DNA of 64,000 nt from a bacterium (GTDB lineage Bacteria > JADJOY01), in contig JAXLQJ010000003.1 of assembly GCA_046331705.1 (NCBI GenBank), positions 214,897 through 278,896 of the forward strand. The letters are read 5' to 3'. The position numbers were made by a program, and so were the translations under genes. Shown here piece by piece: positions 860 through 44,941 of this stretch (position 1 is the first letter of the stretch; each line of letters starts with the position of its first letter). The notes under the pieces are model-generated. The model was not told the DNA's origin, did not search any database, and saw only the letters and a list, made by a program, of their open reading frames with translations.

Positions 860-4453
<3,594 letters not shown>

Positions 4454-4679
4454 GAGCGCTCTCCGAAGATCGACGACGCGACACGAGTGTGCGCGCGTTC
4501 AAACGCGTATCCCGGTGCGCTGTGCAACCAGCGCGCCATCAGCGCCGGCGCGTCACTTTCGCCCGATTCCGCGCGACTCCCTGACGACGCATCCCGAGGA
4601 ACGTCACGGTTGCGTAGCGCGACACGGAACACCCACGCGATGCGGACCCGAGCAGTCCGGTTTCCGGGAACGCGAGCGC

Positions 4680-18944: not shown

Positions 18945-20279
18945 TCAGCCGCGTGAATAGGTGGCAAGCCGGTTGTAGAGGGTCTTGAGGCTGATGCCGA
19001 GGAGCGTCGCGGCGTGCTTCTTGTCGCCGCCGGTGTGCTCGAGCGTCGCGAGGATCAGCCGCCGCTCCACCTCGGCGATCGACGCTCCCACCTCGACGAC
19101 GCTCGCCTCGCCGCGCGCCGGTCCGCCATCGTCGAGCTGGATGCACGCCACACCGATCTCGTCGCGCGCGAGGATGTGCGCACGCTCCATCACGTGCTTC
19201 AGCTGGCGCACGTTGCCGGGCCAGCCATACGCCTCGAGTCGATCGCACGCACCGGCGGCGAGCCGCTTGCGAGTACCGCATTTCGCGTCGAGCGCATCGA
19301 CGAAGAACTGGGCGAGCAGCGCGACGTCACCGGTGCGCTGGCGCAACGGCGGCAGCTCGATCGGGAAGATCAGCAAGCGGTACAGCAAGTCCTCGCGCAG
19401 CTTGCCTTGCGCGACGGCCTTGCGCGGATCGACGTTGGTGGCCGCGACGACGCGCAAGTCGACCACGGTCTCGCCGTCGCCGCCCACGCGCCGTACCGCA
19501 CCCGCTTCGAGCACGCGCAGCAGGCGGACCTGGAGCTCGAGCGGCATCTCCGCGACCTCGTCGAGAAAGAGCGTTCCACCGTGGGCGCGCTCGAAGACTC
19601 CCTTGTGAGTGCGCTCGGCCCCGGTGAAGCTGCCGCGCTCGTGTCCGAAGAGCTCCGATTCGATGAGCGTCGGTGCCAGGGCGCCGCAGTTGATCGGAAC
19701 GAACGGCGCGTGCGCGCGGCGGCTCAGCGCGTGGATGGTTTGCGCGACGAGCTCCTTGCCGGTGCCGGTCTCGCCGGTGACGAGGACCGTCGCGTCGGTG
19801 GGCGCGACGCGCTCGATCAGATCGTAGACGTGCTGCATCGGCGCCGAGGTGCCGATGAGCTTGCCGAACCGACCCAGCTCGCGCAGCTCGTGACGAAGGC
19901 TTCCGATCTCCGCGCTCAAGACGGCGGTGCGACGCGCGCGCTCGAGGATCGAGCGCAACCGCTTCAGATCGAGGGGCTTGGTGAGGTAGTCGACGGCTCC
20001 GCCGCGAAACGCCTCGACGGCGGAATCGACGCTCGAAAACCCGGTGATGAACACGACGTCGACGGCGCGCTGCTGCTCGAGATCGGGCAGCAGCTCGAGC
20101 CCGCTGCCCGAGGGCAGGTCGAGATCGAGCAGCGCCACGTCGATGCGCTCGTTCCGGATGATCTCGCGACCGCTCGCGAGGTCCTCCGCCGCGCAGGTCC
20201 GGAACCCCTGTGCCTCGACCCACTCGGCGAGGGATTCGCGGGCGAGGGCATCGTCGTCCACGATCAACGCGGTAGCCAT
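18945..20279 (-). CDS. Sigma-54-dependent response regulator (NtrC family)
   Basis: Receiver domain (start MATALIVDDD; ATG 20279). AAA+ sigma-54 interaction domain (GETGTGKE, GAFTGA-like ESELFGHERGSFTGA). C-terminal Fis-type HTH. The listed ORF extends upstream to 20561 with a non-homologous leader. Confidence 0.85.
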   Translation of the reverse strand: MATALIVDDDALARESLAEWVEAQGFRTCAAEDLASGREIIRNERIDVALLDLDLPSGSGLELLPDLEQQRAVDVVFITGFSSVDSAVEAFRGGAVDYLTKPLDLKRLRSILERARRTAVLSAEIGSLRHELRELGRFGKLIGTSAPMQHVYDLIERVAPTDATVLVTGETGTGKELVAQTIHALSRRAHAPFVPINCGALAPTLIESELFGHERGSFTGAERTHKGVFERAHGGTLFLDEVAEMPLELQVRLLRVLEAGAVRRVGGDGETVVDLRVVAATNVDPRKAVAQGKLREDLLYRLLIFPIELPPLRQRTGDVALLAQFFVDALDAKCGTRKRLAAGACDRLEAYGWPGNVRQLKHVMERAHILARDEIGVACIQLDDGGPARGEASVVEVGASIAEVERRLILATLEHTGGDKKHAATLLGISLKTLYNRLATYSRG

Positions 20280-20557
20280 CCTCGTCTCCGCCCACCCGCC
20301 CGCCACCAGCGAGCATTCCGCCGGAAACTGTGGCGCAGCGTCGAGCTCGCTCGCCAGTCGGCGGTCGTGCGCGGTGGCGCCACCACGAGTTGCGACGGCA
20401 ACGGCGGTCGTGTGGGCGGCGTCGGCGGCGCCCACCGGACCCGGTGCCAACCCCGGGCGGCACCATTGCCGCCCGAGGTTGGCGAGGGGGTTGAGGTCGA
20501 CGGGATCGACGATTCGCGTGGCAGCGACGGCGCGGCGCGACGACGCGGCGCTGCGGG

Positions 20558-20734
20558 TCACGAGCGCTCCTTCCGGCTGCGCTTGCGGGCGTTCCGGATC
20601 ACCTTCGCGACCGTGGCCTTCACGGCCTCGGCGAGCGGATCGACGGCTGTCTCTGGCGGCGACGGTGGGGCGTCGGCCTGCCGCACGGCATGCTCCGCCG
20701 GGATCTTCTTCGTCTCGTCACGCTCGTCACTCAT
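20558..20734 (-). CDS. Hypothetical small basic protein (58 aa)
   Basis: ATG preceded by GGAGG at -7. High GC3. K/R-rich C-terminus (KVIRNARKRSRKERS). No family recognised. Confidence 0.45.
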   Translation of the reverse strand: MSDERDETKKIPAEHAVRQADAPPSPPETAVDPLAEAVKATVAKVIRNARKRSRKERS

Positions 20735-22052: not shown

Positions 22053-22496
22053 CGAGACGATCCTATCGCCTCCGCCCGCTCGCACCCGAGGATCGCGGCG
22101 CGTCCGAGACGATTCGCTGGCTCGAGCTCGACTGGCGTACTCGTCGGCGGCGGCGAGGGCGGTCAAGGACACCGGCGCACCGTGACAAGCGCGGCAGCGG
22201 ACGTCGCGTGCGGCACCGAGGCCACCAGGACCGATCCGCTGCACCGTTCCGCTCCGCACCCTCGTCACTCGCTGGCCGAGCCCCGCGGCGGGCGCGGCGT
22301 GCTCAGGCTGGACGGAGGCTTGCTCGGGTACCGGTCCGTGCCCCGTGGCGATGGATGCCACCGAGATCGGGACCGTCGCCTTCGACACGAGCTTCGGCTC
22401 GCGCGAAGAGGGCAGTGACTCGGTGAGCGCTCTCGTCGCGCGGAGGTCGCTACCGGGGTTGGTGCGCCGTCGGTCGCGGGCGGTCCGCTGCAGCAG

Positions 22497-23375
22497 TCAC
22501 GCCGGTGACGAGGCGCGCTCGGATCGATCGGCGGCGGCCACCAAGCGGCAGTCCTCGCGCCAGCGCGCGAGCCCGTCGAGCTCCTCTGCGCGAAAGCGCG
22601 GCTGCCGGAGCTCGAGATCCGCGAAGTCGACCTGATGCCCGTCGAACTCCGGTCCTTCGACACAGGCGAAGCGCATCCGACCGCCGACCAGCACGCGGCA
22701 CGATCCGCACATACCCGTGCCGTCCACCATGATCGGGTTGAGGCTCACGACGGTCGGGATGCCACGCGGTCGCGTCAGCTCGGCGCACGCACGCATCATC
22801 GCGAGCGGGCCGACGGCGACCGCGCGATCGATCGCCGGGCCGGCGTCGAGCCGGCGAGCGAGCGCCTCGGTCACCCGACCACGCTCGCCCAGGCTGCCGT
22901 CCTCGGTGACGACGATCAGCTCGTCGCTCGCGGCACGCAACCGATCCTGCCAGAACACCCGCGCGCGATCCCGGAAGCCCACCACGGTGGTGACGCGCGC
23001 GCCCGCCGCCCGGAACGCGCGAATCTGCGGGTAGATCGGCGCCACGCCGAGGCCACCGCCCACCAGCACCACCGCGCGCACGGCGGGCACCTCGCTCGGC
23101 ACGCCGAGCGGACCCGCCAAGGACGCGAGCACGGTCCCCTCGGGCGCGGCCATCATCTCCGCGGTGCTCTTGCCCGCGGCCAGAATCACGAGCGTCACGA
23201 GGCCACCGTCGGCGTCGATGTCGGCCAGGGTGAGTGGGATGCGCTCCGAGCCCTCGTGGAGCCTCACCATCACGAACTGACCGGCGCGCGCGGCCCGCGC
23301 GAGATCGCGCGCCTCGACGTCCCATTGGAACGTGTCGGGCGTGAGCGTCACGCGCCGCAACACTCGCGCAGTCAT
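22497..23375 (-). CDS. FAD/NAD(P)-binding ferredoxin-reductase-like protein with C-terminal [2Fe-2S] (SudB / NfnA / PyrK family)
   Basis: FNR-like fold motifs (RIPLTLADID; VLVGGGLGVAPI) and C-terminal CGSCRV...C cluster motif. Confidence 0.75.
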   Translation of the reverse strand: MTARVLRRVTLTPDTFQWDVEARDLARAARAGQFVMVRLHEGSERIPLTLADIDADGGLVTLVILAAGKSTAEMMAAPEGTVLASLAGPLGVPSEVPAVRAVVLVGGGLGVAPIYPQIRAFRAAGARVTTVVGFRDRARVFWQDRLRAASDELIVVTEDGSLGERGRVTEALARRLDAGPAIDRAVAVGPLAMMRACAELTRPRGIPTVVSLNPIMVDGTGMCGSCRVLVGGRMRFACVEGPEFDGHQVDFADLELRQPRFRAEELDGLARWREDCRLVAAADRSERASSPA

Positions 23376-23496
23376 GCTCGATCTCCACGGCCACCGTCGT
23401 GGCGTGGCAGCGGCGGCCAGGATAGCCGCTCGCGAGCGAACGCATCCTCGGGCAGGAGCGACGCCCGCCCGAGGATGCGAGGGACGACGTGCCGGC

Positions 23497-24582
23497 TCAG
23501 TACCCCATGAGCCCGCGCTTCGGCCGGGCCATCGCCTGCATCTGGGTACCGTCGAAGGTCGGCACGACGACCTTGTTGGGGCCGCCTTGCGTGCCGTGAA
23601 CGAGGACCGGGAAGCGGTCCTCCTGCATGGTCATCACCGGACTCGCGTATCCGAACGTGATCGCGCCGCGCCGGTTCTGGGTGGTGTTGCCCGGCGCGAC
23701 GTGGATGAGGTCCTCGCGGAAGATGTAGAACTCGCCCGGCTTGCAGACCATCGGGACCTTCTCGAGCGGGATCCGCTTCACGTTCTCCACCGTGCACTTG
23801 TTCACGTTCGGTCCCACGTAGGGCGTCATCATCTCCTGCTCGGCTCGCGTCAGGCCGGAGAGCGGCGGCGCCCGGAACGTGTTGGGCTTGGTGGCGCTGA
23901 AGAGGCTCACGAAGGCACGACCGAGGCGCTGCGCCCATCCGAACGCGCGCAGCAAGCCGCACAGCATGCCCCACTGGCTGCGCGAGATCTTCCAGCGGCC
24001 GAGCTGAAGGTGTTCCAGGTTGTACTCTTCGAGGAACGTGCGCGTCGGATACATCGCGAGATCGACGGGCGCAGTGCGCGGCTCGCGCTCGTGATCCCAG
24101 CGCACGTACCACGTGCGCGGGAACGCCCACAGGCAGCCGCTCTCGGGAGTGGCATCGTCGAGCGCCACCCAGATCGCCAACACTGGCACCGGCTTCACCG
24201 GGCCCGGCACGGTCGGCCAGGTCTGGTCGATGCGCCCGTCGCGATGCACACCGGTCGCGGGCGCGCCCGGCGGCTTCGAGAACGTCCACGCCCGCCACAG
24301 CAACACGTCGTTGCCGAGGATGTCGGCGATGCGCTCGACCACGTTGGGGTTCGAGGCGATCTTGAACACCGGCTCGCTGACCATGTGGGCATCCATGGTC
24401 AGGTTCGCCCACGGCGGCCCCTTCGGATCGTCGAGCAACGGCTGAAGCTGCTCACGCAGCTTGGCCATCTCCTCCGGTGTGCAGAGTTGGTAGGGACCGA
24501 TCCAGCCCTCGCGATGAAACTGCTCGATCTCGGCCTGGCTCAGCATGAGCGGGCCCTGGGTGGTTCGGTCGTGGCTGCACAT
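23497..24582 (-). CDS. Phytanoyl-CoA dioxygenase (PhyH) family protein
   Basis: Fe/2OG-dioxygenase PhyH-like profile (HRDG... WVALDDATPESGCL...). Start uncertain: ATG at 24582 (MCSHD...) or 24546 (MLSQAEIEQF). Confidence 0.7.
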   Translation of the reverse strand: MCSHDRTTQGPLMLSQAEIEQFHREGWIGPYQLCTPEEMAKLREQLQPLLDDPKGPPWANLTMDAHMVSEPVFKIASNPNVVERIADILGNDVLLWRAWTFSKPPGAPATGVHRDGRIDQTWPTVPGPVKPVPVLAIWVALDDATPESGCLWAFPRTWYVRWDHEREPRTAPVDLAMYPTRTFLEEYNLEHLQLGRWKISRSQWGMLCGLLRAFGWAQRLGRAFVSLFSATKPNTFRAPPLSGLTRAEQEMMTPYVGPNVNKCTVENVKRIPLEKVPMVCKPGEFYIFREDLIHVAPGNTTQNRRGAITFGYASPVMTMQEDRFPVLVHGTQGGPNKVVVPTFDGTQMQAMARPKRGLMGY

Positions 24583-24687
24583 GGATCTCGTCCTCCGGCG
24601 GATGGGTGAAAAAAGCGAATCGAGTGAGTGCCGCAAACCCGATGCCCAAACGCGGATACCGGCGCGGCGCGCCTGCCGGCAGCGCGC

Positions 24688-27165
24688 TCAGGTCGCCATG
24701 TCGCCGAGCTGGCTTCCGCCCGCGAGCGTGGCGAGGCGCGCGCACGCGACCGCGGCCTGCCCCACGGCGAGCCCGGCGTCGGTGGCCGGTATGCGCTCGG
24801 CGACGAGCACGGAAAGCCCGTCCGACTCGAGCCGATGCTTCAACGATTCCAAAAGGATGCGGTGTACGGTCGCGTTCCCCGACAGGGCCACCGTGGTCAC
24901 CCCGGTGAAGCGCGAGAGACGGGATGCCGCGTCGCCCACGCGGCCCGCGAGCGCGTGTAGAAACGCGAGCGCGATGTGACCTGGATCACGCCCCATCAGG
25001 CGCTCGCGAACCACGTCTCGAATGAGCGGCAGCGTGTCGATGATCGCGAGCGGAATCGCTGCGTGCATGGCGTCGTCACTCGTCGGTGACGATGGCGAGT
25101 TGCGCGTTACGGCACCTTCGGCGGCGAAGGCACTCTCCCCCGGGCCCAGTGCCCGCCGCGCCAGTGCGTCGAGCCTGCGCGCGGGTTCGCCGTCGTAGCC
25201 GCTGCTGCGCGCGAGCCCGAGGATCGCGGCCACGGCGTCGAGCAGCCGCGCGCACGAGGTCGTACGCGGTGCCGCGCGCTCGCCGCGCCGCGATTGGGCT
25301 CGCACCGACGCCAGCACCGCCGGCCCCACCCCGTCGACGACACCGAGCGCCTCGGCCAGCGCGCGATCGGGAAACGCCGCCTCGAGCGCCGACACCGCCA
25401 TCCGCCACGGCTCCCGCAGCGACGCCTCGCCTCCCGGCATCGTGAGCGGCGTGAAGCGCGCCACGCGCCGGCAATCGCGCAGATCTCCGAGCAGGATCTC
25501 GCCGCCCCACAGCGTGCCGTCGGGCCCCACCGCCGCGTCGTCGAGAACGATGCCCAGCACGGCATCGCGAACCCCGTGATCGACGAGCACGCCCGCGAGG
25601 TGCGCGTGATGGTGCTGCACGCCGAGATCCGGCACACCGAGCTCGAGCGCCAGCCGCGTGCTCACGCAATCGGGCTCCAGATCGTGCACGACCAGGTCGG
25701 GCCACACGTCCAGGATGCGCGCGTGGTGTGCGACGCTCGCCACCAGCTCGCCCATGGCGTCCCCGTCGTGAAGGTCGCCCACGTGCGGCAAGAGATGTGC
25801 GCGCCCGCCGCCTGCGAGGACCGGGGCGTTGTCTCGATCCCCCCCGATCGCCAGCACGTTCGTCCGTCCCTCCGGCAGCGCGAACGAGGCCGGCGTCGCG
25901 CCACGACCGAGACGGAGCGGCCGCGGCTTGCCAGCCAGGGGAGCGAGCACGGAATCCACCTGGCGGCGCGCCACCGGCCGATCGTGGATCAGGTAGGCAT
26001 CGGCGACGCCGCCTCCGCTCGTGGGCGCAGCGCCGTCGCCGACCCGCAGCGACGGATGCGCGCCCGGCGCCGCGGCCAGCGCGCACACCCGCGCTTCCGC
26101 GAGCAGCAACACCTCGAGCGGCGTGCTGGGCAGCATGACGCCGATCTCGCCCAGCCCCGGTGCCAGCGCAGCCGCGACGCCGCTCGACTCGCGAAGCGGC
26201 AGCACCACCATCGGCCGCGTCGCTCCCTCGAGCGCCGCGCGATGCTCGCCCACGTCCACGATGGCGCGCGCACGCCGCAGATCCGCCACCACGACCGCGA
26301 ACGGCTCGGTCGGCCGGCCGGTCCGCTCGCGCAGCCGCGCGACCGCAGCCGCGCTGGTCGCATCCACCATCCAGCGAACGGCGCCGTAGCTCTCCACCCC
26401 CACGATCGCGCCACGCCGGAGCAAGCCCGCCGCCGCGCGCAACGGGTCGTCGCGACGGCGCACGCGCTGGCCGAGCTCGCGGTGAGCGGGCTCGGGAAGC
26501 ACCAACCGCAGGCTGGGGCCGCATTCGGGGCACGCGACGTTCTGCGCGTGGAAGCGACGGTCCGTCGGGTTCGCGTATTCCGCGCGACAGCGCGCGCACG
26601 GCTCGAATCGGTCCATCGTGGTGCGGCAGCGATCGTAGGGAAGCTCGACGAGGATCGACGAGCGCGGACCGCACGCGGCGCATTGGGTGAACGCGTAGCG
26701 ATGGCGTCGGTCGCCGGGGTCGAGGATCTCGCGCGCGCACGCGGCGCAGATCGGCCGGTCGGGCGGCATCTCGACGGCCCGCTCGCCGAGCACGCTCGCG
26801 GCGATCCGGAAATCGCGCTCGAGGCCGGGCGGTCGGATCGTGGAGCGCGCCGCGTCGAGCCGCGCGCCTTCGGGTGCCTCGCGCGCCAGCGCCGCCGCGA
26901 ACGACTCGGCGCGTTCGATCCGTCCCTGGACCTCGATCTCCGTCCCCGAGCCCCGATGGCGCACGAATCCCGTGAGCCCGTGGGCCGCGGCAAGCCGCTG
27001 CACGAACGCTCGGAAACCCACGCCTTGAACGAGGCCCTCGATCTCGATCCGGCGGCGCGTTCGCAGGCCGACCGCCGGCGTGCGCTCACCGCCAGGCGCA
27101 GGCCGCGCGGCGCCCGAGGCGAAGCGCGGATCAGCAGGCGGCACGTCCGACGCTCGTCGAGTCAC
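24688..27165 (-). CDS. hypF: [NiFe]-hydrogenase maturation carbamoyltransferase HypF
   Basis: Acylphosphatase-like N-terminus (GLVQGVGFRAFV), two Zn-finger pairs (CAACAREI..., CPECGP), YrdC-like and Kae1-like domains. Proposed GTG start at 27165 overlaps the TGA of the upstream hydrogenase gene (GTGA). Confidence 0.85.
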   Translation of the reverse strand: MTRRASDVPPADPRFASGAARPAPGGERTPAVGLRTRRRIEIEGLVQGVGFRAFVQRLAAAHGLTGFVRHRGSGTEIEVQGRIERAESFAAALAREAPEGARLDAARSTIRPPGLERDFRIAASVLGERAVEMPPDRPICAACAREILDPGDRRHRYAFTQCAACGPRSSILVELPYDRCRTTMDRFEPCARCRAEYANPTDRRFHAQNVACPECGPSLRLVLPEPAHRELGQRVRRRDDPLRAAAGLLRRGAIVGVESYGAVRWMVDATSAAAVARLRERTGRPTEPFAVVVADLRRARAIVDVGEHRAALEGATRPMVVLPLRESSGVAAALAPGLGEIGVMLPSTPLEVLLLAEARVCALAAAPGAHPSLRVGDGAAPTSGGGVADAYLIHDRPVARRQVDSVLAPLAGKPRPLRLGRGATPASFALPEGRTNVLAIGGDRDNAPVLAGGGRAHLLPHVGDLHDGDAMGELVASVAHHARILDVWPDLVVHDLEPDCVSTRLALELGVPDLGVQHHHAHLAGVLVDHGVRDAVLGIVLDDAAVGPDGTLWGGEILLGDLRDCRRVARFTPLTMPGGEASLREPWRMAVSALEAAFPDRALAEALGVVDGVGPAVLASVRAQSRRGERAAPRTTSCARLLDAVAAILGLARSSGYDGEPARRLDALARRALGPGESAFAAEGAVTRNSPSSPTSDDAMHAAIPLAIIDTLPLIRDVVRERLMGRDPGHIALAFLHALAGRVGDAASRLSRFTGVTTVALSGNATVHRILLESLKHRLESDGLSVLVAERIPATDAGLAVGQAAVACARLATLAGGSQLGDMAT

Positions 27166-29057
27166 GGCGCCCCACCGGTGGAGTCGATCGCCGTCACCAC
27201 CGCGGTGCACCAGCGCTCGAGCTCGGCGTCGGACGCGTGCGTGGCATCGGCGCCCTCGCCGATCGCGAGCCCCACGAACCACGCCCGACGCGGCATGCGC
27301 CCGAGCGCACCCATCAACGCCACCCCTTCGGCGACACCGAAGCCGTGCGTCGACGTCACGGTCATCGGGTGCGCGCCGTCGCGCACCGCATCGAGAGGCC
27401 AGCGCACCACCGCGCCGCGCTCACCGCCGCGCACGGCGTCGACCACGATCAACGAGTCGCACCCAGCCGCGAGCTCGGCGAGCTCCGGCCCGGGCTCGCC
27501 GGTCGTCACGATCTCGAGCGCCGGCGCGCCGGGCTCGCTAGCCTCGCGCTCACGCAGCCGCTGAGCCACGACGAGACCCAGCCGATCCGCGCCACTCGCA
27601 CTCCCGACGCACAGCACGCGTACCGAGCGGGCCGCGAGCGAGATCGGATCCGCGGCGCGCGAGACCATCCCCGTGGGCGCGCTCGCGTCGTCCCCGTGGG
27701 CCGCGACTCGCTCGCGGTCACCGTCGCCGGCGATCCGCTCCGCGGCGCCCGCGGCAGGAAGTCGATCGATCGTGAGCGTCAAGAAATGCGTCGCGCACGA
27801 GATGCACGGGTCGTAGTTCCGGATCACCACCTCACACGCGTGGGTCGCGTCGGCATGCGCGAGCTCGAGCAGATCGGGCGCGAGATCGCGCAGGTCGCGC
27901 TCGATGGTCGCCTGATTCTGCGAGGTCGGCGGCACGATGCGGACGCTCTTCACGAGCCCCTCGTCGTCGAGCTCGAAGCGATGGAAGAGCGTTCCGCGCG
28001 GCGCCTCGGTCGCGCCGTACCCCACGCCCGCGCGGGGCGCGGCGGCGACGTACGGGACCTCGGGCGGCCGATACGCGGTCACGATGCGCAGCGCCTCCTC
28101 CACCGCGAAGAGCAGCTCGAGGCTCCGCGCGATGGCACCTTGCGCGGGATCGACGCACGGCACCGTGAAGCCGATCGCACGCGCGGCGCTCCGCGCCGTC
28201 TCGCCGAGCTTGTCGAAGGCGAGGCTCACCCGCGCGATCGGACCCACCAGGTAGGCACCGCGGCCGCGGATGCGCGCGTGAAGCGCCGTGGAATGCTCGA
28301 CCTGCACCTCCTCGAAGGTCTGCTCCCAATCGGCGACCGCCACGTCCAGACCGGCCGACGACACGAGCCGCCCTTCGTTGAGCGGGTACTCGCGGGGATG
28401 CCACAACGACACCAGCTCGACGTCGTCCAGCCGGCGGGGCCGGACCTCGAAGCGCACGACCCACGCCAAGAGCTCGAGGGCGCGCTCGCGCGCCCGCTCC
28501 AGCTCGGGCAGCAGCGCGTTCAGCTCGGCGCGGGTCGGCACCCGCGTGAAGCCGCCGGGACGAGCCGAGACCGGATGGATCGCGCGCCCGCCCAGCACCT
28601 CCAGGAGGCGGTTGCCGAGGCGACGCAGCGCCAGCGCCCGCTCCACGTCCGCGGGATGATCGGCGGCCATCTCGACGACGCTCGGATAACCCAATGCGTC
28701 GGGCGCCGCGAGCATCGCCACGTGCAGCGCGTGGCTCTCGATCCACTCGCCGCAGTAGAAGAGCCGGCGCAGCTCGCGCACCTCGGGCGAGATCGCGACG
28801 CCGAGGATCGACTCGAGCGCGTGGAGCGCGCTCATCTGATACGCGACCGGGCAGATGCCGCAGATCCGCGCCACGATGTCCGCCACTTCCAGGTAGCTGC
28901 GCCCCCGCAGCAATCCCTCGAAGAAGCGCGGCGGCTCGTGGATCGTGAGCCGCGCCTCGCGCACCACGCCACCCTCGATGGTCAAGTGGAGCGCGCCCTC
29001 GCCTTCCACGCGCGCGAGGTGCTCGACGCGGATGGTGCGTCGCTCACGCGAGGCCAT
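27162..29057 (-). CDS. [NiFe]-hydrogenase large (alpha) subunit, group 3b-like, fused in-frame to a hydrogenase maturation endopeptidase-like domain
   Basis: N-terminal L1 motif RICGICPVAY. L2 motif DPCISCATH at about residue 416-424. About 40-aa linker, then a HycI/HoxW-like segment (VRVLCVGSASGADRLG..., DSLIVVDAV, STHGFG). One uninterrupted 631-aa ORF. Confidence 0.85.
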   Translation of the reverse strand: MASRERRTIRVEHLARVEGEGALHLTIEGGVVREARLTIHEPPRFFEGLLRGRSYLEVADIVARICGICPVAYQMSALHALESILGVAISPEVRELRRLFYCGEWIESHALHVAMLAAPDALGYPSVVEMAADHPADVERALALRRLGNRLLEVLGGRAIHPVSARPGGFTRVPTRAELNALLPELERARERALELLAWVVRFEVRPRRLDDVELVSLWHPREYPLNEGRLVSSAGLDVAVADWEQTFEEVQVEHSTALHARIRGRGAYLVGPIARVSLAFDKLGETARSAARAIGFTVPCVDPAQGAIARSLELLFAVEEALRIVTAYRPPEVPYVAAAPRAGVGYGATEAPRGTLFHRFELDDEGLVKSVRIVPPTSQNQATIERDLRDLAPDLLELAHADATHACEVVIRNYDPCISCATHFLTLTIDRLPAAGAAERIAGDGDRERVAAHGDDASAPTGMVSRAADPISLAARSVRVLCVGSASGADRLGLVVAQRLREREASEPGAPALEIVTTGEPGPELAELAAGCDSLIVVDAVRGGERGAVVRWPLDAVRDGAHPMTVTSTHGFGVAEGVALMGALGRMPRRAWFVGLAIGEGADATHASDAELERWCTAVVTAIDSTGGAP

Positions 29058-29820
29058 CGGCCACCTCTCGGAACGGACGCAGGGCGCCGGTGATGCCGCG
29101 GAACTGACGCGCCACGTCCGCAGCGGGGATGCCCATCGCGACGTAGCGATTCGCCAGGGTGCGCGGCTCGGCGCCTTCGCTGGGACCGAAGCAGCCGTAG
29201 CAATCGCGACCCATGGATGGGCAGAGCGCGCCGCAACCGGTGCGCGTGACCGGTCCCAGGCACGGCAGGCCGCGCGTCACCACCACGCAGGTGCGGCCGA
29301 GCCGCTTGCAGTCGAGACAGAGATCGTGAGTCGGCAGATGCGGTCGCACGCCGCGCAGCACCTGGCCGAGCACCGTCGCCAGCTCGCCGGCGTCGATCGG
29401 ACAACCCGAGATCTCGAAGTCGACCTTCACGTGCTCGGCGATGGGCGTCGACGTGGAGAGAGCCTGGATCCACTCGGGACGCGGATAGACGAGGCGCTTC
29501 CACGCCTCGACGTCCGCCCAGTTGCGCAACGCCTGAATCCCGCCCGCGGTCGCGCACGCGCCGATCGTCACCAGCGTGCGCGAGGCACGACGGATCTCGA
29601 GGATGCGCTCGACGTCGGCGGCGGTGGTGACGCTGCCCTCGACGAAGCCGAGCTCGTAAGGTCCCTCGAGGACGCGGCTCGACGCCTCGAGGAAGTGGGC
29701 GATCTCGACCTGACGCGCGAGCTCGAGCAGCCGCTCCTCCAGGTTCAGGAACGCCACCTGGCAACCGTCGCAGGACGCGAGCTTGAAGAGCGCGACCCGC
29801 GGGCGCGACGCGGCAGCCAT
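29044..29820 (-). CDS. [NiFe]-hydrogenase small (delta) subunit, group 3b type
   Basis: ALFKLASCDGCQ, IGACATAGG, CLDCKRLGRTCVVVTRGLPCLGPVTRTGCGALCP Cys motifs like sulfhydrogenase HydD. ATG 29820 overlaps the TGA of the gamma subunit (ATGA). Confidence 0.9.
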   Translation of the reverse strand: MAAASRPRVALFKLASCDGCQVAFLNLEERLLELARQVEIAHFLEASSRVLEGPYELGFVEGSVTTAADVERILEIRRASRTLVTIGACATAGGIQALRNWADVEAWKRLVYPRPEWIQALSTSTPIAEHVKVDFEISGCPIDAGELATVLGQVLRGVRPHLPTHDLCLDCKRLGRTCVVVTRGLPCLGPVTRTGCGALCPSMGRDCYGCFGPSEGAEPRTLANRYVAMGIPAADVARQFRGITGALRPFREVADGLA

Positions 29821-30646
29821 CAGAACCCCTCCGCGCCGAACCAGCGCCGCACCTCGGGATACGCGACGATCGGTCCGTCGCGGCACACGAACAGCGAGCC
29901 GATCTGGCAATGCCCGCAATGCCCCAGGCCGCAGCGCATGTTGCGCTCGAGCGAGAGGTAGATGGAGGCCGGATCGAGGCCCGCGAGCCGCAGCTTCTGG
30001 ATCGCGAGCCGCATCATGATCTCGGGCCCGCACATCAGCACCGCCGTGCGGCCGGGCTCGACCTCGATCTCGTCGAAGAGATCGAGCGGCACGCCCACGT
30101 GATACCGCCAGGTCTTGTCCGGCCGATCGACGGTGAGCAGCACCCGCGTGTTGGGCGTGTCCTTCCAGCGATCGAAGCGCTCGCGATAGAGCAAGTCCTG
30201 GGGCGTCTTCACGCCGTGCACGATCGTCAGCCGGCCATAGGACGCGCGCCGGCGGATCATGTACTCGACGGCGCCCCTCACCGGAGCGCAACCCAGGCCG
30301 CCGGTCACCACCACCACGTCGTGACCGACGATGGCGTCGAGCGGCCACGGCTTGCCGTAGGGACCGCGCAGCCCCAGCACGTCGCCCTTCTCCACCGATT
30401 CGAGGGCGCTGGTGATGCGCCCCACGATCCGCACCGTGTGGTCGAAGCCGTCGCGGTCGGCGGGATCGGACGAGATCGAGATCGGCACCTCGCCCGCCCC
30501 GAAGACGTACAGCATGTTGAACTGGCCGGGCTGGAACGCGAAGCGCTCGTGGACGGCGGGGTCCACGAAACGCATGCGGAACGTGAAGATCCCCTCGGCG
30601 TCGGGCCGCTTCTCGACGATTCGCGCCGGGTGGATGCGGTACGGGT

Positions 30647-30650
<4 letters not shown>
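29820..30650 (-). CDS. Hydrogenase gamma subunit (FAD/NAD(P)-binding, [2Fe-2S])
   Basis: Oxidoreductase FAD/NAD-binding fold and C-terminal CGLGHCGHCQ motif like HydG. GTG start at 30650 overlaps the TGA of the beta subunit. Confidence 0.85.
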
Positions 30651-31750
<1,100 letters not shown>

Positions 31751-32226: not shown

Positions 32227-32877
32227 TCACCGCAAGCCCTGCGAGCTTCCGTGCGCTACCAACAACCGATGGTCCTCGGCGAGCGTCGCCAGGAGGTAGC
32301 GACCGACGCGCGAATAGCGAGGCGCATCACCGAGATCGGTGAGCGCGCGCCCCAATTCTCCCAGACAATCGCCTGCATGTACGCCCAAGAGCTTGACCTG
32401 GACGTCGGTTGCGCTGGCCGCCTCGAGGATCCTCCCATCGCCCAGATAGCGCGCGGTGATCCCCGCGAGATTGGCGAGCAGCAACGCTTCGCGCGGCCGG
32501 GTCCCGTCGAGCGGCAACGCGACCAAGGCGGCGGCGTCGTGTCGCGCCTGTGCGGCAGCGTCCTTGCACACCAGCGACACCTGTGCGTTCCGGTCGTGCA
32601 GCCAAGCCCTGAACTCCTTCGACCATTGCTTCGCAGCGCCAGGTTCGAGGATGTCCAGCAGATCGTCGGTCTCTGCCGTCGCCCTCGCATGGCCTCCTCT
32701 CGTCCATCGATCCCTGAGCGATCGCAGGCGCTCCGGGGTGGGTGCCTCCGCGGTCAGCTCACCGACCACGGCGTACGCGCGGGCACGGTGCTGGTGGAAG
32801 GCGACCAGAGCGCGAGGGCTACCGAGCGGCACGGTGGGTGGGGTTGCCAAGGTTTCTCTCGAATGAAGGATGAACAT
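32227..32877 (-). CDS. Hypothetical protein
   Basis: 216-aa ORF (MFILHSRETLATPP...) with high GC3 and no recognisable domain. Divergent from the NtrC-family regulator. Confidence 0.5.
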   Translation of the reverse strand: MFILHSRETLATPPTVPLGSPRALVAFHQHRARAYAVVGELTAEAPTPERLRSLRDRWTRGGHARATAETDDLLDILEPGAAKQWSKEFRAWLHDRNAQVSLVCKDAAAQARHDAAALVALPLDGTRPREALLLANLAGITARYLGDGRILEAASATDVQVKLLGVHAGDCLGELGRALTDLGDAPRYSRVGRYLLATLAEDHRLLVAHGSSQGLR

Positions 32878-32954
32878 GGTGCTCGGCACTGGAATCAAGT
32901 CGCGTGCCGGAGCCCGAAGGCATCGAGCGGGATGCCTGGATACGAGGGGATGCG

Positions 32955-34340
<1,386 letters not shown>

Positions 34341-34474: not shown

Positions 34475-34511
34475 GCGCAGAGCGCGTGATATCGTACGCC
34501 GCGCTCTGCGC
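34475..34511. promoter_or_regulatory. Perfect 12-bp inverted repeat (GCGCAGAGCGCG-N13-CGCGCTCTGCGC)
   Basis: Lies between the regulator stop (34340) and ATG 34535. The loop contains GATATC. Confidence 0.5.
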
Positions 34512-34534
34512 CCTCACCATCACGAGGTCAGGTC

Positions 34535-37435
34535 ATGGATCGGATGCTCCCGGCACGGGTGTCTCCTGCGTCGCGCTCGCTCGTCGTGATCTTCATCGCG
34601 CTCGCGGTGCTCTGCTGCACGAGCGCATGCGGCGGCGACAGCGGCGGCTCGAGCGCGGCGGATGCGCGCGTCGCCGACCTCGCGAGCGCCGGCGGCAACG
34701 GTCCGCGCGCCGTCTATCTGCCGGTGAGCAAGAAGGCGCTCAACTTTCCCTTCCCGCACGATGCGTTCACCCTCGTCGATCCATCCACGCCGAGCGGGCG
34801 CCGCCTCAACCTGCCACTCGAGGGCGATACGGCCCTCGAGATCCGCATTCGCGAGCTGCTGAACGCCCAGGATGGTTTCGATCCGCTCACACCGATGCAG
34901 CTCAGCTTCGACGAGCCCGTGGATCTCGCCACGCTGGCGGTGAACCGCGACGCCGACCCGACCAACGACACCGTCTTCGTCCTCAACGTCGATCCACGCA
35001 GCCCGCGCTTCGGCGAGCGCGTCGCGATGGATCTCGGCCAGGGCAATTACCCGATCGAACGACCGCCGCGCAGCTACTTCCCGAACGATCCCCTGAAGGA
35101 CGTGGGGCAATACGAGTTCCCCGCGGACAATCGCGAGGACTTCTACGAGGACCGCAGCGACACGTTCATCATGCGGCCGATCGCGCCGCTCGCGCCGTCG
35201 AGCACCCACGCGGTGATCTTCACCCGCGGCGTGCGCGGCGAGGACGGCGAGCCGCTGCGCTCACCGCACGCCCCGCACGTGGCCCTCGACAGCCAATACG
35301 CCGACCTCGACCGAGCGCTGCCGATCCTCGCTGGACTCGGCGTCGACCCCAGCGACATCGCCTACGCTTACACCTTCACCACCGGCACGCCCACCCACGA
35401 GCTCGAGCAGGTGGAGTCGGGACTGATGCGCGGCGAAGGTCCGCTCGGCTACCTGCGCGACCGCTTTCCGGTGAACCTCACGTTGCTGCCGTTCTCGAAG
35501 CAGCCCGGTGACGATTTCCTCGACTACCAGGGCAACGACCAGCTCCTCGACCCGCCCATCGTGAAGCTGGTGGCGAACATCGCCATCCCGCTCTTCGGCG
35601 GAGGCTCGGGCGATCTCATCCAGGCGGCCATCGACCAGCTCTCCGATCTCACCAGCATCCGCTACTTCGTCCAGGGCACTTATCGAAGCCCGTTCTTCCT
35701 GGGCAACGCCGACGTCGCGTTCCAGCCCGAGGAGATCTCGGGCGAACGCGAGCTGCGCGCCGATCAGACCGACGACGTGCCGTGGTTCCTCGCGGTGCCC
35801 AAGCCCACCGAGCGCAACGGCTTCGCCCAGCCGCCGTACCCGGTGTGCATCTTCCAGCACCCCAACTCCACGAGCCGCCTGATCGCGCTGGCGATCTCGA
35901 GCGTGCTCTCGGATTTCGGCTTCGCCACCATCGGCATCGACGCCGCCGAGAACGGGCCCATCGCGCCTTACGCCACCGATCAGCTGCTCGAGCTCATCAC
36001 CAGCGGTGACACCTCGAGCGTGCCGCTCGCCGGCCTCCTCGGGATCATCCTGGACGGCGTCGGCAACGCCGCCGAGGGCATCGCGTTCGTGGACGTGTTC
36101 GCCGGCACCGGCCGGACACCCGACATCGACTTCAACGGCGACGGACAGATCTCCTCGGGCGAGGAGACGTACACCGGTGACATTCCCACGGTCCGAGACG
36201 TGTTTCGCCAGACGGTGGTGGACTCGTTGCAGCTCACGCGAATCCTGCGCTCGTTCGGCCAGGACCGCAACCACAACGGCAAGCTCGACCCCGACGAGGG
36301 CGACTTCGACGGCGACGGCATCGTCGACGTGGGCGGAGCGAACGCCGAGCTGGTGGCAGGCGCCGAATCGCTCGGCACGTTCATGACGTCGCCCTTCCTG
36401 GCGATCAGCCGCGACGTGGATCGGGCTGCGCTCAACGTGCCCGGCGGTGGCGCCATCGATTTCGTCTCGCGGATCGACTTCTCGGTGGTGAATCAGCTCT
36501 TCGTGCAGCTCTTCGGCCCGGCCGTGGTGGGCCGTCCGTCGAAGTCGGGCGGCGGCATCGATCTCACGCTGATCAACGACACCGGCGACGAGCGCTCGGC
36601 AGCACGCGTCGGCCCCGTCGCGATACCGCCCGGCACGGTGGTGCGGCTCGTCAACCTGGACAAGCCCGACCTGGCGCCGCGCACCGTGGACGCGAACGCC
36701 GACGGCACCTTCATGATCACCTTCCCCGCCGATCCCGGGAACCGCCTCGAGGTCTCGTTCAGCGGCCCCACCGGCGAATCGCTGGGCTTGCCGAGTTACC
36801 GCTTCACCAGCGAGCGGCAGGGGTTCGGCGTGTTGCGCAACACCCCCTCGCTGCGCACCTTCGCCACCATCACCCAAACGCTCTTCGGCTCCGGCGACGG
36901 CGCCAACTACGCCACCCATTGGACCGGCGATCCGCTTCCCGGCCGCAATCCCAAGCAGGCGCTCATCCAGCTCGATCCCGCGGACTTCACGGTGCCCACC
37001 TCGACCGGGCTCACGCTGGCGCGGGCGGCCAACCTGATCAGCCCCGAGCGCATGGCGGACCTCGTCTCCAAGAACGTGGCCGTGGGCACCATCCCCGAGC
37101 TGGGGATCCACATGAAGATCCCCGAGCTGCCGCTCGCCGCCGGCAACGAGTCCGAATATCCAGGCCTCGACTACGACCTCACGCGCACCTTCCCGTTCGA
37201 GAACCGCGTTCCTGGCTCGGGGCTGGCGCTCCATCTGGCCGACAACCACGAGTACCTCTTCGCCGCGAGCCAGGGCGAGAGCGGTCCCGTGGGCGCCTGG
37301 CTCACGATCGCCGCCCAGGCGCAGATCGGCATCTTCCTGGAGCGCGGCGAGGTGGTGATCCCCTTCCGCGATCTCATCGACGAGCTGCGCGCCAAGGGAC
37401 GCGACATCCCGCGAATCCCGGGCGTCGACCCCTGA
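34535..37435 (+). CDS. Large secreted protein of unknown function (966 aa)
   Basis: Signal peptide MDRMLPARVSPASRSLVVIFIALAVLCCTSAC. Several DxDGDG / DPDEGDFDGDG calcium-binding-like motifs. No catalytic family recognised. Confidence 0.7.
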   Translation: MDRMLPARVSPASRSLVVIFIALAVLCCTSACGGDSGGSSAADARVADLASAGGNGPRAVYLPVSKKALNFPFPHDAFTLVDPSTPSGRRLNLPLEGDTALEIRIRELLNAQDGFDPLTPMQLSFDEPVDLATLAVNRDADPTNDTVFVLNVDPRSPRFGERVAMDLGQGNYPIERPPRSYFPNDPLKDVGQYEFPADNREDFYEDRSDTFIMRPIAPLAPSSTHAVIFTRGVRGEDGEPLRSPHAPHVALDSQYADLDRALPILAGLGVDPSDIAYAYTFTTGTPTHELEQVESGLMRGEGPLGYLRDRFPVNLTLLPFSKQPGDDFLDYQGNDQLLDPPIVKLVANIAIPLFGGGSGDLIQAAIDQLSDLTSIRYFVQGTYRSPFFLGNADVAFQPEEISGERELRADQTDDVPWFLAVPKPTERNGFAQPPYPVCIFQHPNSTSRLIALAISSVLSDFGFATIGIDAAENGPIAPYATDQLLELITSGDTSSVPLAGLLGIILDGVGNAAEGIAFVDVFAGTGRTPDIDFNGDGQISSGEETYTGDIPTVRDVFRQTVVDSLQLTRILRSFGQDRNHNGKLDPDEGDFDGDGIVDVGGANAELVAGAESLGTFMTSPFLAISRDVDRAALNVPGGGAIDFVSRIDFSVVNQLFVQLFGPAVVGRPSKSGGGIDLTLINDTGDERSAARVGPVAIPPGTVVRLVNLDKPDLAPRTVDANADGTFMITFPADPGNRLEVSFSGPTGESLGLPSYRFTSERQGFGVLRNTPSLRTFATITQTLFGSGDGANYATHWTGDPLPGRNPKQALIQLDPADFTVPTSTGLTLARAANLISPERMADLVSKNVAVGTIPELGIHMKIPELPLAAGNESEYPGLDYDLTRTFPFENRVPGSGLALHLADNHEYLFAASQGESGPVGAWLTIAAQAQIGIFLERGEVVIPFRDLIDELRAKGRDIPRIPGVDP

Positions 37436-42151: not shown

Positions 42152-44755
42152 CTACGGCCGCGTGCAGCCGCCGGGCGTTGCCGTGTTGCAATCGTCGTCG
42201 AGGCCGTTGCGCGGGATCTCCGTCGCACCGGGATTCACGGCGGCGTTGCCGTCGTCGCAGTCTGCAGCTGCGCCGTTCGGACACGTGGCATCACCCGGGT
42301 TGCCGTAGCCGTCACCATCGTTGTCGACGCAGGTGACGTCCGGCGTGCCGGGATTGCAGTCGTCGTCGAGGCCGTTGCCAGGCACCTCGACGGCGCCGGG
42401 ATTCACCGCGGCATTGCCGTCGTTGCAATCGGTGGCGCCGCCCGCCGGGCAGCTCGCGTCGCCGGGGTCGCCGTAGCCGTCACCATCGTTGTCGACGCAG
42501 GTGACGTCCGGCGTGCCCGGGTTGCAGTCGTCGTCGAGGCCGTTGCCCGGCACTTCCACGGCGCCGGGATTCACCGCGGCATTGCCGTCGTTGCAGTCGG
42601 TGGCGGCGCCGTTGGAACACGCCGCACTTCCGGGATTGCCGTAGCCGTCGCCGTCGTTGTCGACGCAGGTGTTGCCGATCGGCGTGTAGAGCACCGACTG
42701 GGCGTTGGTGAGCGTCGCGGCGTTGTTGTGGGGCGCGAGGTGGAAACGGAGGTTGCCGCCCTCGCCGATGCCGACCGTGGGCGTGAGGCCGGTGTTGCCG
42801 GAACCGTAGTTGAAACGAATCGTGCCGTCGGCGTTGAGGATGGTTTCGAAGTTGACGGGCGCCGAACCCGAGTAGGTCTGCCCGACCCAGCGAAACACGA
42901 CGCTCGAAGCCGAGGCCGTGATGTAGATGTCCTCGCCGGCCTGCGCGCTCGAATCGGTGCGCAGATCATCCCACAGCGCCGCGACGATCGGGCGCGCCTG
43001 GAGGTCGGCGTCCGCGTTGGTGTAGTCGGTGTTCGAGCCCTGGAAGTCGAGGATGCCGTTCGAGCACACCCACACGCTGGTGCGGCTGGTGCCGAAGTAG
43101 TCGAACGCGAACGGCAGCGTGTACGACCAGCACGAGTCGTCGGCGTGCCAGCCCTGCGCCGTGCCGCCGCCCAGGAGCTGCTGCGAGGTGAGCGACTGGG
43201 TGTAGTAGGGCACGATGACCGTGAAGTTGACCGCGTTGCTGGCGCCCGCGGAAGTGGTCACGACCACCGGATTGGCGCCGGGATTGAGGCCGTTCGGCGC
43301 CGTCGCGGTGATCGCGCTGTCCGACCACGAGCCCACGGCGGCGGTGATGCCGTTGAAGGTGACCGAGCCGGTGCCCTGGCTCGCGCCGAAGCTCGCACCC
43401 GAGATCACGACCGTGTCGCCCGATGCGCCGGCGGTCGGCGACAGGTAGTAGACGTGCGGTCCGAGAACGCTCGCCGTGAGCGCTTGATAGGCGTTGATGC
43501 GGCCGCCCGTGAGCACCTTCCCGGCGAGGCCCGGCTTCGAGTCGGTCGTGAGCAGGATGCGGCTCTTGACCTCGGCGGCGGTCAAGCTCGGGGTCTGCGA
43601 CCAGAGCAGCGCCGCCAATCCGGAGACGTGAGGTGTGGCCATCGAGGTCCCGGAGATCGTGCCGTAGCTTCCCTGGCTGATCGGGTACGTGCTCAGGATG
43701 TTGACGCCCGGAGCCGCGACGTCGACCGTGGTGGCGCCGTAGCTCGAGAACGAGGCGAGCGCGTCGTTGTGGTCGGTGGCGGCCACGGCGATCACGTTCG
43801 CGTTCGGGTAGTTCGATGGGTAATTGGGGACCGAGTCGTTGTTCGACGCGGCGTTCCCGGCCGCCGCGATGAACAGGATGCCGGCGTTCTCGGCGGCGGT
43901 GAGCGCGTCTTGAAAGCTCTGGTCGTAGCCGCCGCCACCCCACGAGTTGCTGGTGAGCTTCACGCCGTGGGACGTCGTGTACTGCATGCATTCGGTGGCG
44001 TCGGCGATCGAGCCCGAGCCGCCCGAGTTCAGGAACTTGCAGGGCAGGATCTTCACGTTCCACGCGACACCGACCACGCCGACGCCGTTGTTGCCGACGG
44101 CGCCGATGGTGCCGGCGGTGTGCGTGCCGTGATAGTGGTCGTCCATCGGATCACCGCTGCCGGTGATCGCGTTGATGCCGTGGACGTCGTCGACGTAGCC
44201 ATCGCCCTCGTCGTCGATGCCGTTGCCGGCGATCTCGCCCGGGTTGGTCCAGACGTTCGCGGCGAGGTCCGGGTGGTTGTAGTCGAGGCCGGTGTCGATG
44301 TCTCCCACCAGCACCGTGCTCGACCCGGTGGTGATGTTCCACGCCTCCGGCGCGTCGATGTCCGCATCGGCGGTGCCGCCCGTCTGTCCGGTGTTGTTGA
44401 GCCCGTAGAGCTGCGAATAGCTGGGGTCGTTGGGAGTCGCGAGGATGTGGACGATGTGGTTCGGCTCGGCGTACTGGACGAGCGGGTTCTTGCTGAGCGA
44501 CGCGATCGACGCCTCGGTGTCCTTGACCTTGAGCCGATGGACGTCGTTGATCCAGTAGTGCTTCACGACGCTGGCGCCTTCGGCTGCGAGCACGGACTGG
44601 ATCTGGTTCGCCTGGGTGCCGGACTTGAAGCGCACCAGCACCTCACCGGGCACGTACTCCGGCGCCGCCGACTTGGCGCTCGCCAGGCTCGCCAAGGCCG
44701 TCGTCAGCAACACCACCACCCAAGACCAACACGCTCGTCTTCCATGACGGATCAT
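42152..44755 (-). CDS. Secreted S8 (subtilisin) peptidase with C-terminal Myxococcus-type cysteine-rich repeats
   Basis: Signal peptide. I9 propeptide-like region. Catalytic motifs DTG (VGDIDTGL), HGTHTAG, GTSMATPHVSG. Three tandem copies of the about 54-aa CVDNDGDGYG(N/D)PGD..C..G...DCNDGNAAVNPGA.E.PGNGLDDDCN repeat. Confidence 0.9.
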   Translation of the reverse strand: MIRHGRRACWSWVVVLLTTALASLASAKSAAPEYVPGEVLVRFKSGTQANQIQSVLAAEGASVVKHYWINDVHRLKVKDTEASIASLSKNPLVQYAEPNHIVHILATPNDPSYSQLYGLNNTGQTGGTADADIDAPEAWNITTGSSTVLVGDIDTGLDYNHPDLAANVWTNPGEIAGNGIDDEGDGYVDDVHGINAITGSGDPMDDHYHGTHTAGTIGAVGNNGVGVVGVAWNVKILPCKFLNSGGSGSIADATECMQYTTSHGVKLTSNSWGGGGYDQSFQDALTAAENAGILFIAAAGNAASNNDSVPNYPSNYPNANVIAVAATDHNDALASFSSYGATTVDVAAPGVNILSTYPISQGSYGTISGTSMATPHVSGLAALLWSQTPSLTAAEVKSRILLTTDSKPGLAGKVLTGGRINAYQALTASVLGPHVYYLSPTAGASGDTVVISGASFGASQGTGSVTFNGITAAVGSWSDSAITATAPNGLNPGANPVVVTTSAGASNAVNFTVIVPYYTQSLTSQQLLGGGTAQGWHADDSCWSYTLPFAFDYFGTSRTSVWVCSNGILDFQGSNTDYTNADADLQARPIVAALWDDLRTDSSAQAGEDIYITASASSVVFRWVGQTYSGSAPVNFETILNADGTIRFNYGSGNTGLTPTVGIGEGGNLRFHLAPHNNAATLTNAQSVLYTPIGNTCVDNDGDGYGNPGSAACSNGAATDCNDGNAAVNPGAVEVPGNGLDDDCNPGTPDVTCVDNDGDGYGDPGDASCPAGGATDCNDGNAAVNPGAVEVPGNGLDDDCNPGTPDVTCVDNDGDGYGNPGDATCPNGAAADCDDGNAAVNPGATEIPRNGLDDDCNTATPGGCTRP
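42160..42700. repeat. Tandem about 162-bp repeats (3.3 copies) inside the subtilisin gene
   Basis: Near-identical DNA units (...ccgtagccgtcaccatcgttgtcgacgcaggtgacgtccggcgtgcc...) recur with a 162-nt period. Confidence 0.8.
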
Positions 44756-44941
44756 GCGCCCCTCCCCTTCGATTGTGAGCGGATTCTCGCGACGGTGCGA
44801 CTCGACGATGCTACGCCCCGGTGACGAACGGGGTCAATCCAGCAACCGTCGAGTGGCGCAATTCCGCGGCGGCACGGCCCATCCAACACCAGTTCGAGGG
44901 CCGCGCTTGCCGCGGCGTGCCGCTGTCGTTATTGTAAAAAT

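Follow-up and report, generated by a model that had tools for sequence, protein, structure and literature searches.

Endoproteolysis of the large subunit is the last checkpoint of [NiFe]-hydrogenase maturation and is poorly understood. The endopeptidases of the family involved cut after the histidine of the DPCxxCxxH motif once nickel (Ni) is in place. In the group 3b enzymes Thermococcus kodakarensis Hyh and Pyrococcus furiosus SHI (5yxy, 5ija, 9e15, 9nez), cleavage occurs after this residue; in particular, P. furiosus SHI alpha has been deposited as a 428-amino-acid (aa) precursor and a 424-aa mature chain ending at the equivalent histidine. In immature T. kodakarensis HyhL, the tail to be removed forms a beta strand that keeps the site open (PMC6769069), and the archaeal protease, which is made separately, can act on more than one hydrogenase (PMC7654741). 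In Escherichia coli, HybD and HycI serve group 1 and group 4 enzymes, and their substrate recognition depends on Ni and the cofactor rather than on the tail; two-hybrid and pull-down experiments have shown that the protease docks on the cofactor-loaded large subunit and not on the tail (PMC5299533, PMC6769069). HybD and HycI are not known to be fused to their substrates. By contrast, a 64,000-nucleotide (nt) stretch of contig JAXLQJ010000003.1 (GenBank assembly GCA_046331705.1), hereafter the window, contains a group 3b-type large-subunit gene, hyhL, that continues in frame into an endopeptidase. Sequence comparisons suggest that this is probably a functional fusion of hyhL with its cognate endopeptidase, inherited vertically, whose precursor is cut by the tethered domain.

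The fused gene is read from the minus strand as a single open reading frame (ORF) with a predicted precursor mass of 67.7 kDa. A large subunit (residues 1-424) is followed by a 9-aa tail (425-433), a 44-aa linker (434-477), and the endopeptidase (478-631) (Table 1). A preliminary description of the window, made from its letters alone, had reported one uninterrupted 631-aa ORF at 27162-29057 without giving the strand, and this ORF holds. Every motif quoted there lies within it: RICGICPVAY and DPCISCATH in the large subunit, and VRVLCVGSASGADRLG (residues 479-494), DSLIVVDAV (534-542), and STHGFG (569-574) in the C-terminal part. The spacing needs correction, as the protease-like region had been placed about 40 residues past the large subunit and actually starts 55 residues after His424.

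The DNA of the region is GC-rich (72-75% GC, with values of 0.65-0.78), and 144 stop-free stretches of at least 207 codons occur across the six frames of the window. Because long stop-free stretches abound, the open frame as such is weak evidence for coding. One of the 144 stretches is an antisense ORF of 618 aa (27237-29093, plus strand) that mirrors the entire fusion gene; it was considered as a gene and rejected as a high-GC artefact, since codon-position GC favours the minus strand. Along codons 1-631 of the fused ORF, GC at third codon positions (GC3) stays at 0.77-1.00 (0.77-0.97 over the tail, linker, and protease domain) and shows no phase change at the junction. The frame is regarded as coding throughout because GC3 is continuous, both parts have Pfam and NCBIfam matches, and the architecture recurs in other assemblies. 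The hyhL-endopeptidase fusion is thus confirmed as real. GenBank already holds the protein as MFN7950855.1, "MAG: hydrogenase maturation protease [bacterium]"; the fused sequence is therefore public, but its name says nothing of the two-module architecture.

Five independent assemblies carry the fusion (the window and the loci that we label L008, L001/L004, L003, and L005), and they represent four lineages. The L008 protein is 98% identical to that of the window, L004 is the same contig as L001, and L005 is titled "Deltaproteobacteria bacterium". The lineages diverge down to 45% identity in the protease part, and the reading frame is kept in all of them. Moreover, all fused proteins share one layout, namely HyhL, DPCISCATH, F(L/V)xLT(I/V)(D/E), a linker, and R(V)(L/V)CVG…GADRLGL. 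The large subunit has at least 8000 homologues; of the 120 best, no more than two clusters are long (P0001, 631 aa, 98% identity; P0002, 626 aa, 73%), and the others measure 420-476 aa. When 1.84 billion representatives were searched exhaustively by phmmer with the C-terminal 168 aa, 1049 matched at E<=1e-3, nearly all of them stand-alone proteases, and a hydrogenase part is present in two of the 150 best protease representatives (P0002 and P0122). This search and a profile search replaced a word-index search with the same 168 aa, which gave one match and missed the fused relatives. The best 120 matches of a profile search with the protease domains are all stand-alone proteins of 129-201 aa, each with either a PF01750 match or the name hydrogenase maturation protease. 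When one genome per species was scanned with a 3-sequence alignment of the fused clade, three loci were recovered (L003, L004, and L005), each of them fused. Two scans of JGI metagenomes found no further fused member and recovered four distant loci, each with a separate protease gene after the large subunit. The survey of group 3b orthologues that had been proposed in the preliminary description therefore indicates a rare fusion confined to one clade, a small group of uncultured high-GC bacteria.

Two irregularities concern L005. P0122 is a 239-aa fragment of the L005 protein that begins at the contig end with the leader MCIRDS, which we take to be adapter-derived, as at other contig ends; it was considered as an N-terminally extended stand-alone protease and rejected, its length being an artefact. 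In addition, hyhL of L005 (2497-4459) is split by a frameshift near 2950-3530 into two overlapping ORFs, and its C-terminal half and the protease are intact. The frameshift is likely an indel error, the contig name tig00020885 suggesting a long-read assembly; less probably, this hyhL may be a pseudogene.

The large-subunit module belongs to a recognisable operon. Its sequence matches Pfam PF00374, and the best NCBIfam models over residues 9-427 are ShyA (249 bits) and HydA (229 bits), which rank above Vhu/Frh. These scores are far under the archaeal equivalog cut-offs (700 and 880), and the subunit is best described as a 3b-type relative that falls short of an equivalog of the archaeal proteins. 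The top match in the PDB is P. furiosus SHI alpha (E 3e-61). In the AlphaFold2 (AF2) model, most of this module has a predicted local distance difference test score (pLDDT) above 90, and Foldseek gives template modelling (TM) scores of 0.89-0.91 to 9nf0, 9nez, and 9e15. Nevertheless, archaeal SHI/Hyh subunits are only 26-32% identical to the window subunit in fold alignments, and their tail is only 4 aa long. The order hyhB-hyhG-hyhS-hyhL corresponds to the gene set expected of a soluble (cytosolic) NAD(P)-linked group 3b [NiFe]-hydrogenase. The preliminary claim of a complete group 3-type large subunit ending near residue 424 is accordingly supported by the NCBIfam, PDB, and fold matches and by the hyhBGSL operon. 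The window carries a single large subunit and a single protease domain.

For the C-terminal part, the match to PF01750 (HycI) reaches 26.4 bits (cut-off 23), and that to TIGR00072 ("hydrogenase maturation protease"), over residues 481-600, reaches 50.4 bits (cut-off 47.45). The HyaD/HybD subfamily models remain under their cut-off (26.6 vs 151.8); the domain is best placed in the endopeptidase superfamily and outside the HyaD/HybD subfamily. In an AF2 model of the C-terminal part (residues 415-631; 86 sequences), residues 475-625 reach pLDDT 84-95. When this model was compared with the PDB by Foldseek, E. coli HybD (1cfz) and T. kodakarensis HybD (5ija) came first, followed by 2kml, 5ttx, 2e85, and 5zby, with target-normalised TM scores of 0.57-0.70 for the top matches; a pairwise sequence search with E. 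coli HybD gives E of about 0.09. We take Glu16, Asp62, and His93 to be the metal ligands of HybD. In the alignment to the HybD structure (1cfz) that had been suggested as a check, these residues are matched by Asp491, Asp540, and His571, which show complete or 98% conservation across 87 family members and are retained in all four fused lineages. The fused domain thus shares both the fold and the Glu/Asp-Asp-His site of the E. coli HybC/HybD and HycE/HycI systems (1cfz and 2e85 being among the top matches). Profile, fold, and ligand triad agree, and the earlier assignment of the region to the HycI/HoxW/HyaD-type endopeptidases stands.

The tail and the linker that join the two modules differ in character. 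The tail FLTLTIDRL is kept in all fused lineages, and in unfused homologues a 9-aa tail is the entire C-terminal extension, with endings such as CATHFLRLEMEET, FLTVNMHRA, and FLRLDVDRG directly before the stop codon; longer extensions are rare. In the full-length AF2 model, residues 427-433 form a beta strand, as does the tail of immature T. kodakarensis HyhL. The linker has pLDDT below 50 in the AF2 models (residues 424-472 in the C-terminal model; residues 438-477 disordered in the full-length model). From the histidine to the first protease strand there are 55 aa in the window, 40 in L001, 40 in L003, and 22 in L005, and the linkers of the fused lineages cannot be aligned with one another.

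The origin of the fusion may be sought in operons with two genes. The nearest stand-alone proteases are encoded directly after group 3b hyhL genes. Bacterial 3b operons with a separate protease (L006, L007, L009, L010, L015, and L016) have the same four subunits and gene order as the window, their large subunits are 55-63% identical to that of the window and have the same 9-aa tail core, and their proteases belong to the same subfamily as the fused domain (GSPxGxDRxG ... VDA ... SSHGFG). Whereas the window has one ORF, these operons have two cistrons, with a tail of 9-52 aa before the stop codon and an overlap of 4-16 nt or a short gap between the genes. Because the genes overlap or adjoin in these relatives, a one-base indel can switch between the split and the fused state. 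The extended HyhL tails of L015 and L016, the longer of which holds the direct repeat AAPAASPSEPR(G/S)GARGQ, look like intermediates, or secondary splits, of the fusion. The order protease-then-hypF is common to the window, L003, L005, and the unfused sister locus L009. In a neighbour-joining analysis (own implementation, 200 replicates), the fused protease domains group together as a clade in 162 of 200 bootstraps, with P0352, the protease of L009, as the most frequent sister; moreover, the substitutions G483C and W495L are common to all four fused domains. The simplest history is one fusion event with vertical descent thereafter. Simple loss of the stop codon at a junction of the L009 type would leave approx. 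11 residues between the histidine and the first protease strand, and the observed minimum is 22.

On the preferred reading, in which the precursor is cut by the tethered domain, maturation would follow the family pathway: the Hyp machinery would insert Fe(CN)2CO and then Ni while the tail keeps the active site open. The tethered protease would recognise the Ni-loaded large subunit and cut between His424 and Phe425, within one chain or between chains. The cut would free the mature 46.7-kDa HyhL, which would close around the cofactor and pair with HyhS, together with a 21.0-kDa tail-linker-protease fragment that may process other precursors in trans. Recognition should tolerate a long tail, because the protease docks on the large subunit and not on the tail. 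The fusion would ensure one protease per substrate at a very high local concentration, which would explain the drift of conserved residues in the fused clade (see below). Cleavage is expected because the protease is under purifying selection (0.27, see below), the tail is retained, the mature end of P. furiosus SHI alpha is equivalent, and no second protease gene was found in the window, to whose 64 kb the search was confined. Self-processing in cis is a reasonable prediction for this protein.

Several observations weigh against a working protease. All members of the clade are known as metagenome-assembled genomes, and cleavage and activity are predicted only. In the full-length AF2 model, the protease domain has pLDDT of only 50-83, in a part of the model that rests on only three sequences. 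The ratio of nonsynonymous to synonymous substitution rates (dN/dS), which is rough here as GC3 near 0.9 compresses dS, is 0.27-0.57 for the protease vs 0.05-0.38 for the large subunit in the same pairs (0.05-0.15 where the full-length subunit was compared) and 0.29-1.8 for the linker. Between L001 and L003, the closest informative pair, the values are 0.05 for the large subunit, 0.29 for the linker, and 0.27 for the protease, which is thus no more constrained than the linker; between the window and L001, they are 0.15, 0.67, and 0.48, respectively. The window and L008 differ in 15 codons, too few for an estimate. Moreover, 31 positions are conserved to at least 80% among 83 stand-alone relatives; the fused domains keep 19-24 of these positions, whereas the stand-alone relatives keep a median of 30 and a minimum of 24. 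The near-invariant DRPG is degenerate in the fused forms (GEPG, DQPV, or MAPA), and the free proteases of the unfused operons keep DRPG, Trp495, and Gly483, all of which the fused ones have lost. At positions conserved in the closest stand-alone subfamily other than the ligand triad (DRPG, GW, IGxG), the fused forms depart from that subfamily. The degenerate positions are not known catalytic residues; superfamily membership stands, with the fused clade forming an atypical, relaxed branch. This drift fits either relaxation, in which the tether replaces binding affinity, or slow decay of an unneeded domain. Relaxation is favoured because the ligand triad and an intact frame are retained over deep divergence.

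If decay were the correct explanation, the protease domain would be dead or decaying and would serve as a long assembly peptide or chaperone-like tail, or simply stay attached, and any processing would be performed by another endopeptidase with its gene elsewhere. The relaxed constraint, which in the closest pair resembles that of the linker, and the loss of 7-12 of the 31 family-conserved positions, DRPG, W495, and G483 included, agree with this view, as do the long non-functional tails of the nearest unfused relatives (19 aa in P0008 and 52 aa in P0060). We nevertheless regard it as unlikely: the three metal-ligand residues and the glycine-rich motifs persist in four lineages diverged to 45% identity, approx. 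155 codons are free of stop codons and frameshifts in every lineage, and the HybD fold is still modelled confidently. Moreover, no other protease gene is found in the window or beside the operon, where unfused relatives keep one.

Two further explanations concern the gene boundary. The protease might be made also, or mainly, as a separate protein from a start within the linker, the long ORF being an incidental read-through. An in-frame ATG is present at codon 464, 15 codons ahead of the first protease strand, and the ancestral layout was two translationally coupled genes; but codon 464 lacks a Shine-Dalgarno-like sequence ahead of it, the linkers of L001, L003, and L005 have no conserved start that possesses one, and the fused product would arise regardless, as no stop codon intervenes. 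This makes an internal start quite improbable. Still harder to credit is a sequencing or assembly artefact, in which a lost stop codon or an indel joined two neighbouring genes in the window assembly only. One indel error could join the overlapping genes seen in relatives, and a related assembly, L005, does have a frameshift elsewhere in hyhL; yet the five fused assemblies come from different projects, their linkers differ in sequence and length beyond what a point error makes, and codon-position GC is coding-like throughout. Because unalignable linkers of 55, 40, 40, and 22 residues all keep the frame, assembly error is excluded as the cause, which answers the concern about a missed stop codon or frameshift raised in the preliminary description.

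A stronger form of the tethered-protease reading is possible but doubtful, namely that the protein is the first autoprocessing [NiFe]-hydrogenase, whose own C-terminal domain would, on Ni insertion, make a cut that is obligatorily intramolecular and essentially single-turnover. It fits the linker length, which looks selected for reach (22-55 aa vs approx. 11 from stop loss), and the docking residues, which appear free to drift with the tether replacing affinity. If it were true, the protein would be a natural covalently trapped protease-substrate complex. A comparison can be made with the spore germination protease GPR (A25) and polyprotein-type fusions, in which protease and scissile bond likewise lie on one chain. 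GPR is a weak fold match of the fused domain (7c4x, rank 43), and the likeness is limited to the shared fold, with no homology claimed beyond it. GPR removes its own propeptide for self-activation, whereas the module activated by the cut in the window protein would be the hydrogenase and not the protease.

Each of the two modules is a member of a well-known family, and the process is textbook knowledge; the novelty lies in the covalent architecture. The searchable literature, which covers few subscription journals, yielded no account of a natural fusion between a large subunit and an endopeptidase, and neither "fused" nor "fusion" occurs in the text of a 2025 maturation review; provisionally, the architecture thus appears to be undescribed. 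Searches of the PDB by sequence and by fold with the window modules yielded no structure of a protease-substrate complex, and a precursor mutated in the metal ligands would offer structural studies a complex that is already tethered. The fusion constrains docking models, as the N-terminus of the protease must reach within approx. 22 residues of the scissile bond, and it indicates that an assembly peptide can be 207 residues long. Moreover, it is an experiment of nature in which one can follow how selection on the substrate-binding surface of an enzyme relaxes under tethering, and with a self-contained large subunit, soluble NAD(P)-linked hydrogenases could be produced heterologously with fewer accessory genes. 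If the domain is inactive, the finding shrinks to a curiosity of gene-boundary evolution.

Table 1. Coordinates of the fused gene, its parts, and its operon in the window, and gene junctions of related unfused loci.
Feature	Location	Strand	Remarks
hyhL::endopeptidase fusion, single ORF	27162..29057	minus	631 aa, ATG start; stop codon 27162-27164
[NiFe]-hydrogenase large-subunit module, residues 1-424	27786..29057	minus	Group 3b type; predicted mature product 46.7 kDa, end His424
L1 motif RICGICPVAY, residues 64-73	28839..28868	minus	Ni-Fe ligands Cys66 and Cys69; invariant in 97 aligned homologues
L2 motif DPCISCATH, residues 416-424	27786..27812	minus	Ligands Cys418 and Cys421; expected scissile bond His424-Phe425; columns invariant in 97 homologues
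Assembly-peptide tail FLTLTIDRL, residues 425-433	27759..27785	minus	9 aa; kept in all fused lineages
Linker, residues 434-477	27627..27758	minus	Predicted disordered; neither sequence nor length conserved
Hydrogenase maturation endopeptidase domain, residues 478-631	27165..27626	minus	Peptidase family A31, HybD/HycI/HoxW type; PF01750, TIGR00072
Asp491 (GADRLG)	27585..27587	minus	Aligns to HybD Glu16 / HycI Asp16, metal ligand position
Asp540 (VVDAV)	27438..27440	minus	Aligns to HybD Asp62, metal ligand position
His571 (STHGFG)	27345..27347	minus	Aligns to HybD His93, metal ligand position
hypF carbamoyltransferase	24688..27165	minus	HypF domains; likely GTG start at 27165 overlaps fusion stop codon (GTGA)
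hyhS, small subunit	29044..29820	minus	258 aa; PF01058; end overlaps hyhL start by 14 nt
hyhG, FAD/NAD(P)-binding diaphorase subunit	29820..30650	minus	276 aa; PF00175, PF10418, PF00970
hyhB, Fe-S subunit	30647..31750	minus	~367 aa, start codon uncertain; PF17179 Fer4_22
L006, hyhL/protease junction			4-nt ATGA overlap
L007, hyhL/protease junction			11-nt gap
L009, hyhL/protease junction			4-nt ATGA overlap; then hypF-hypC-hypD-hypE
L010, hyhL/protease junction			5-nt gap
L015, hyhL (P0008)	4001-5323		Frame enters protease gene by 16 nt; 19-aa tail
L016, hyhL (P0060)	982-2412		52-aa low-complexity tail; abuts protease start, ATGA overlap

Several genes surround the operon in the window. Downstream of hypF lie an ORF resembling PhyH-family dioxygenases (379 aa, 23497-24636, minus strand) and a 331-aa ORF with no Pfam match (22450-23445, minus strand). 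The genes hypA-E are not adjacent to hypF in the window, whereas they are in L006, L007, and L009. Upstream, between a sigma-54 activator and hyhB, is a 216-aa ORF with no Pfam match (32227-32877, minus strand) that shares 73% identity with its positional counterpart in L001 (3125-3775); in L008, an ORF of similar length (340-963) lies at the matching position. The 216-aa ORF seems to be a conserved neighbour of the fused operon and could have an accessory or regulatory role. Sigma-54-dependent response regulators flank the hydrogenase region (32904-34340, plus strand; 18945-20561, minus strand), and the former has the same position in L001. Upstream of hyhB, a search that allowed at most one mismatch found no sigma-54 -24/-12 consensus.

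Farther away, the window encodes a single-chain pyruvate:ferredoxin/flavodoxin oxidoreductase (1212 aa, 860-4498, minus strand), a possible low-potential electron source in an organism with a soluble hydrogenase. A 981-aa ORF (34490-37435, plus strand) has a strong coding signal (GC3 0.90) and no Pfam match better than E = 0.18. A subtilase (Peptidase_S8; 42152-44833, minus strand) has a fervidolysin-type prodomain, a TIG domain, and C-terminal MopE-like putative metal-binding repeats.

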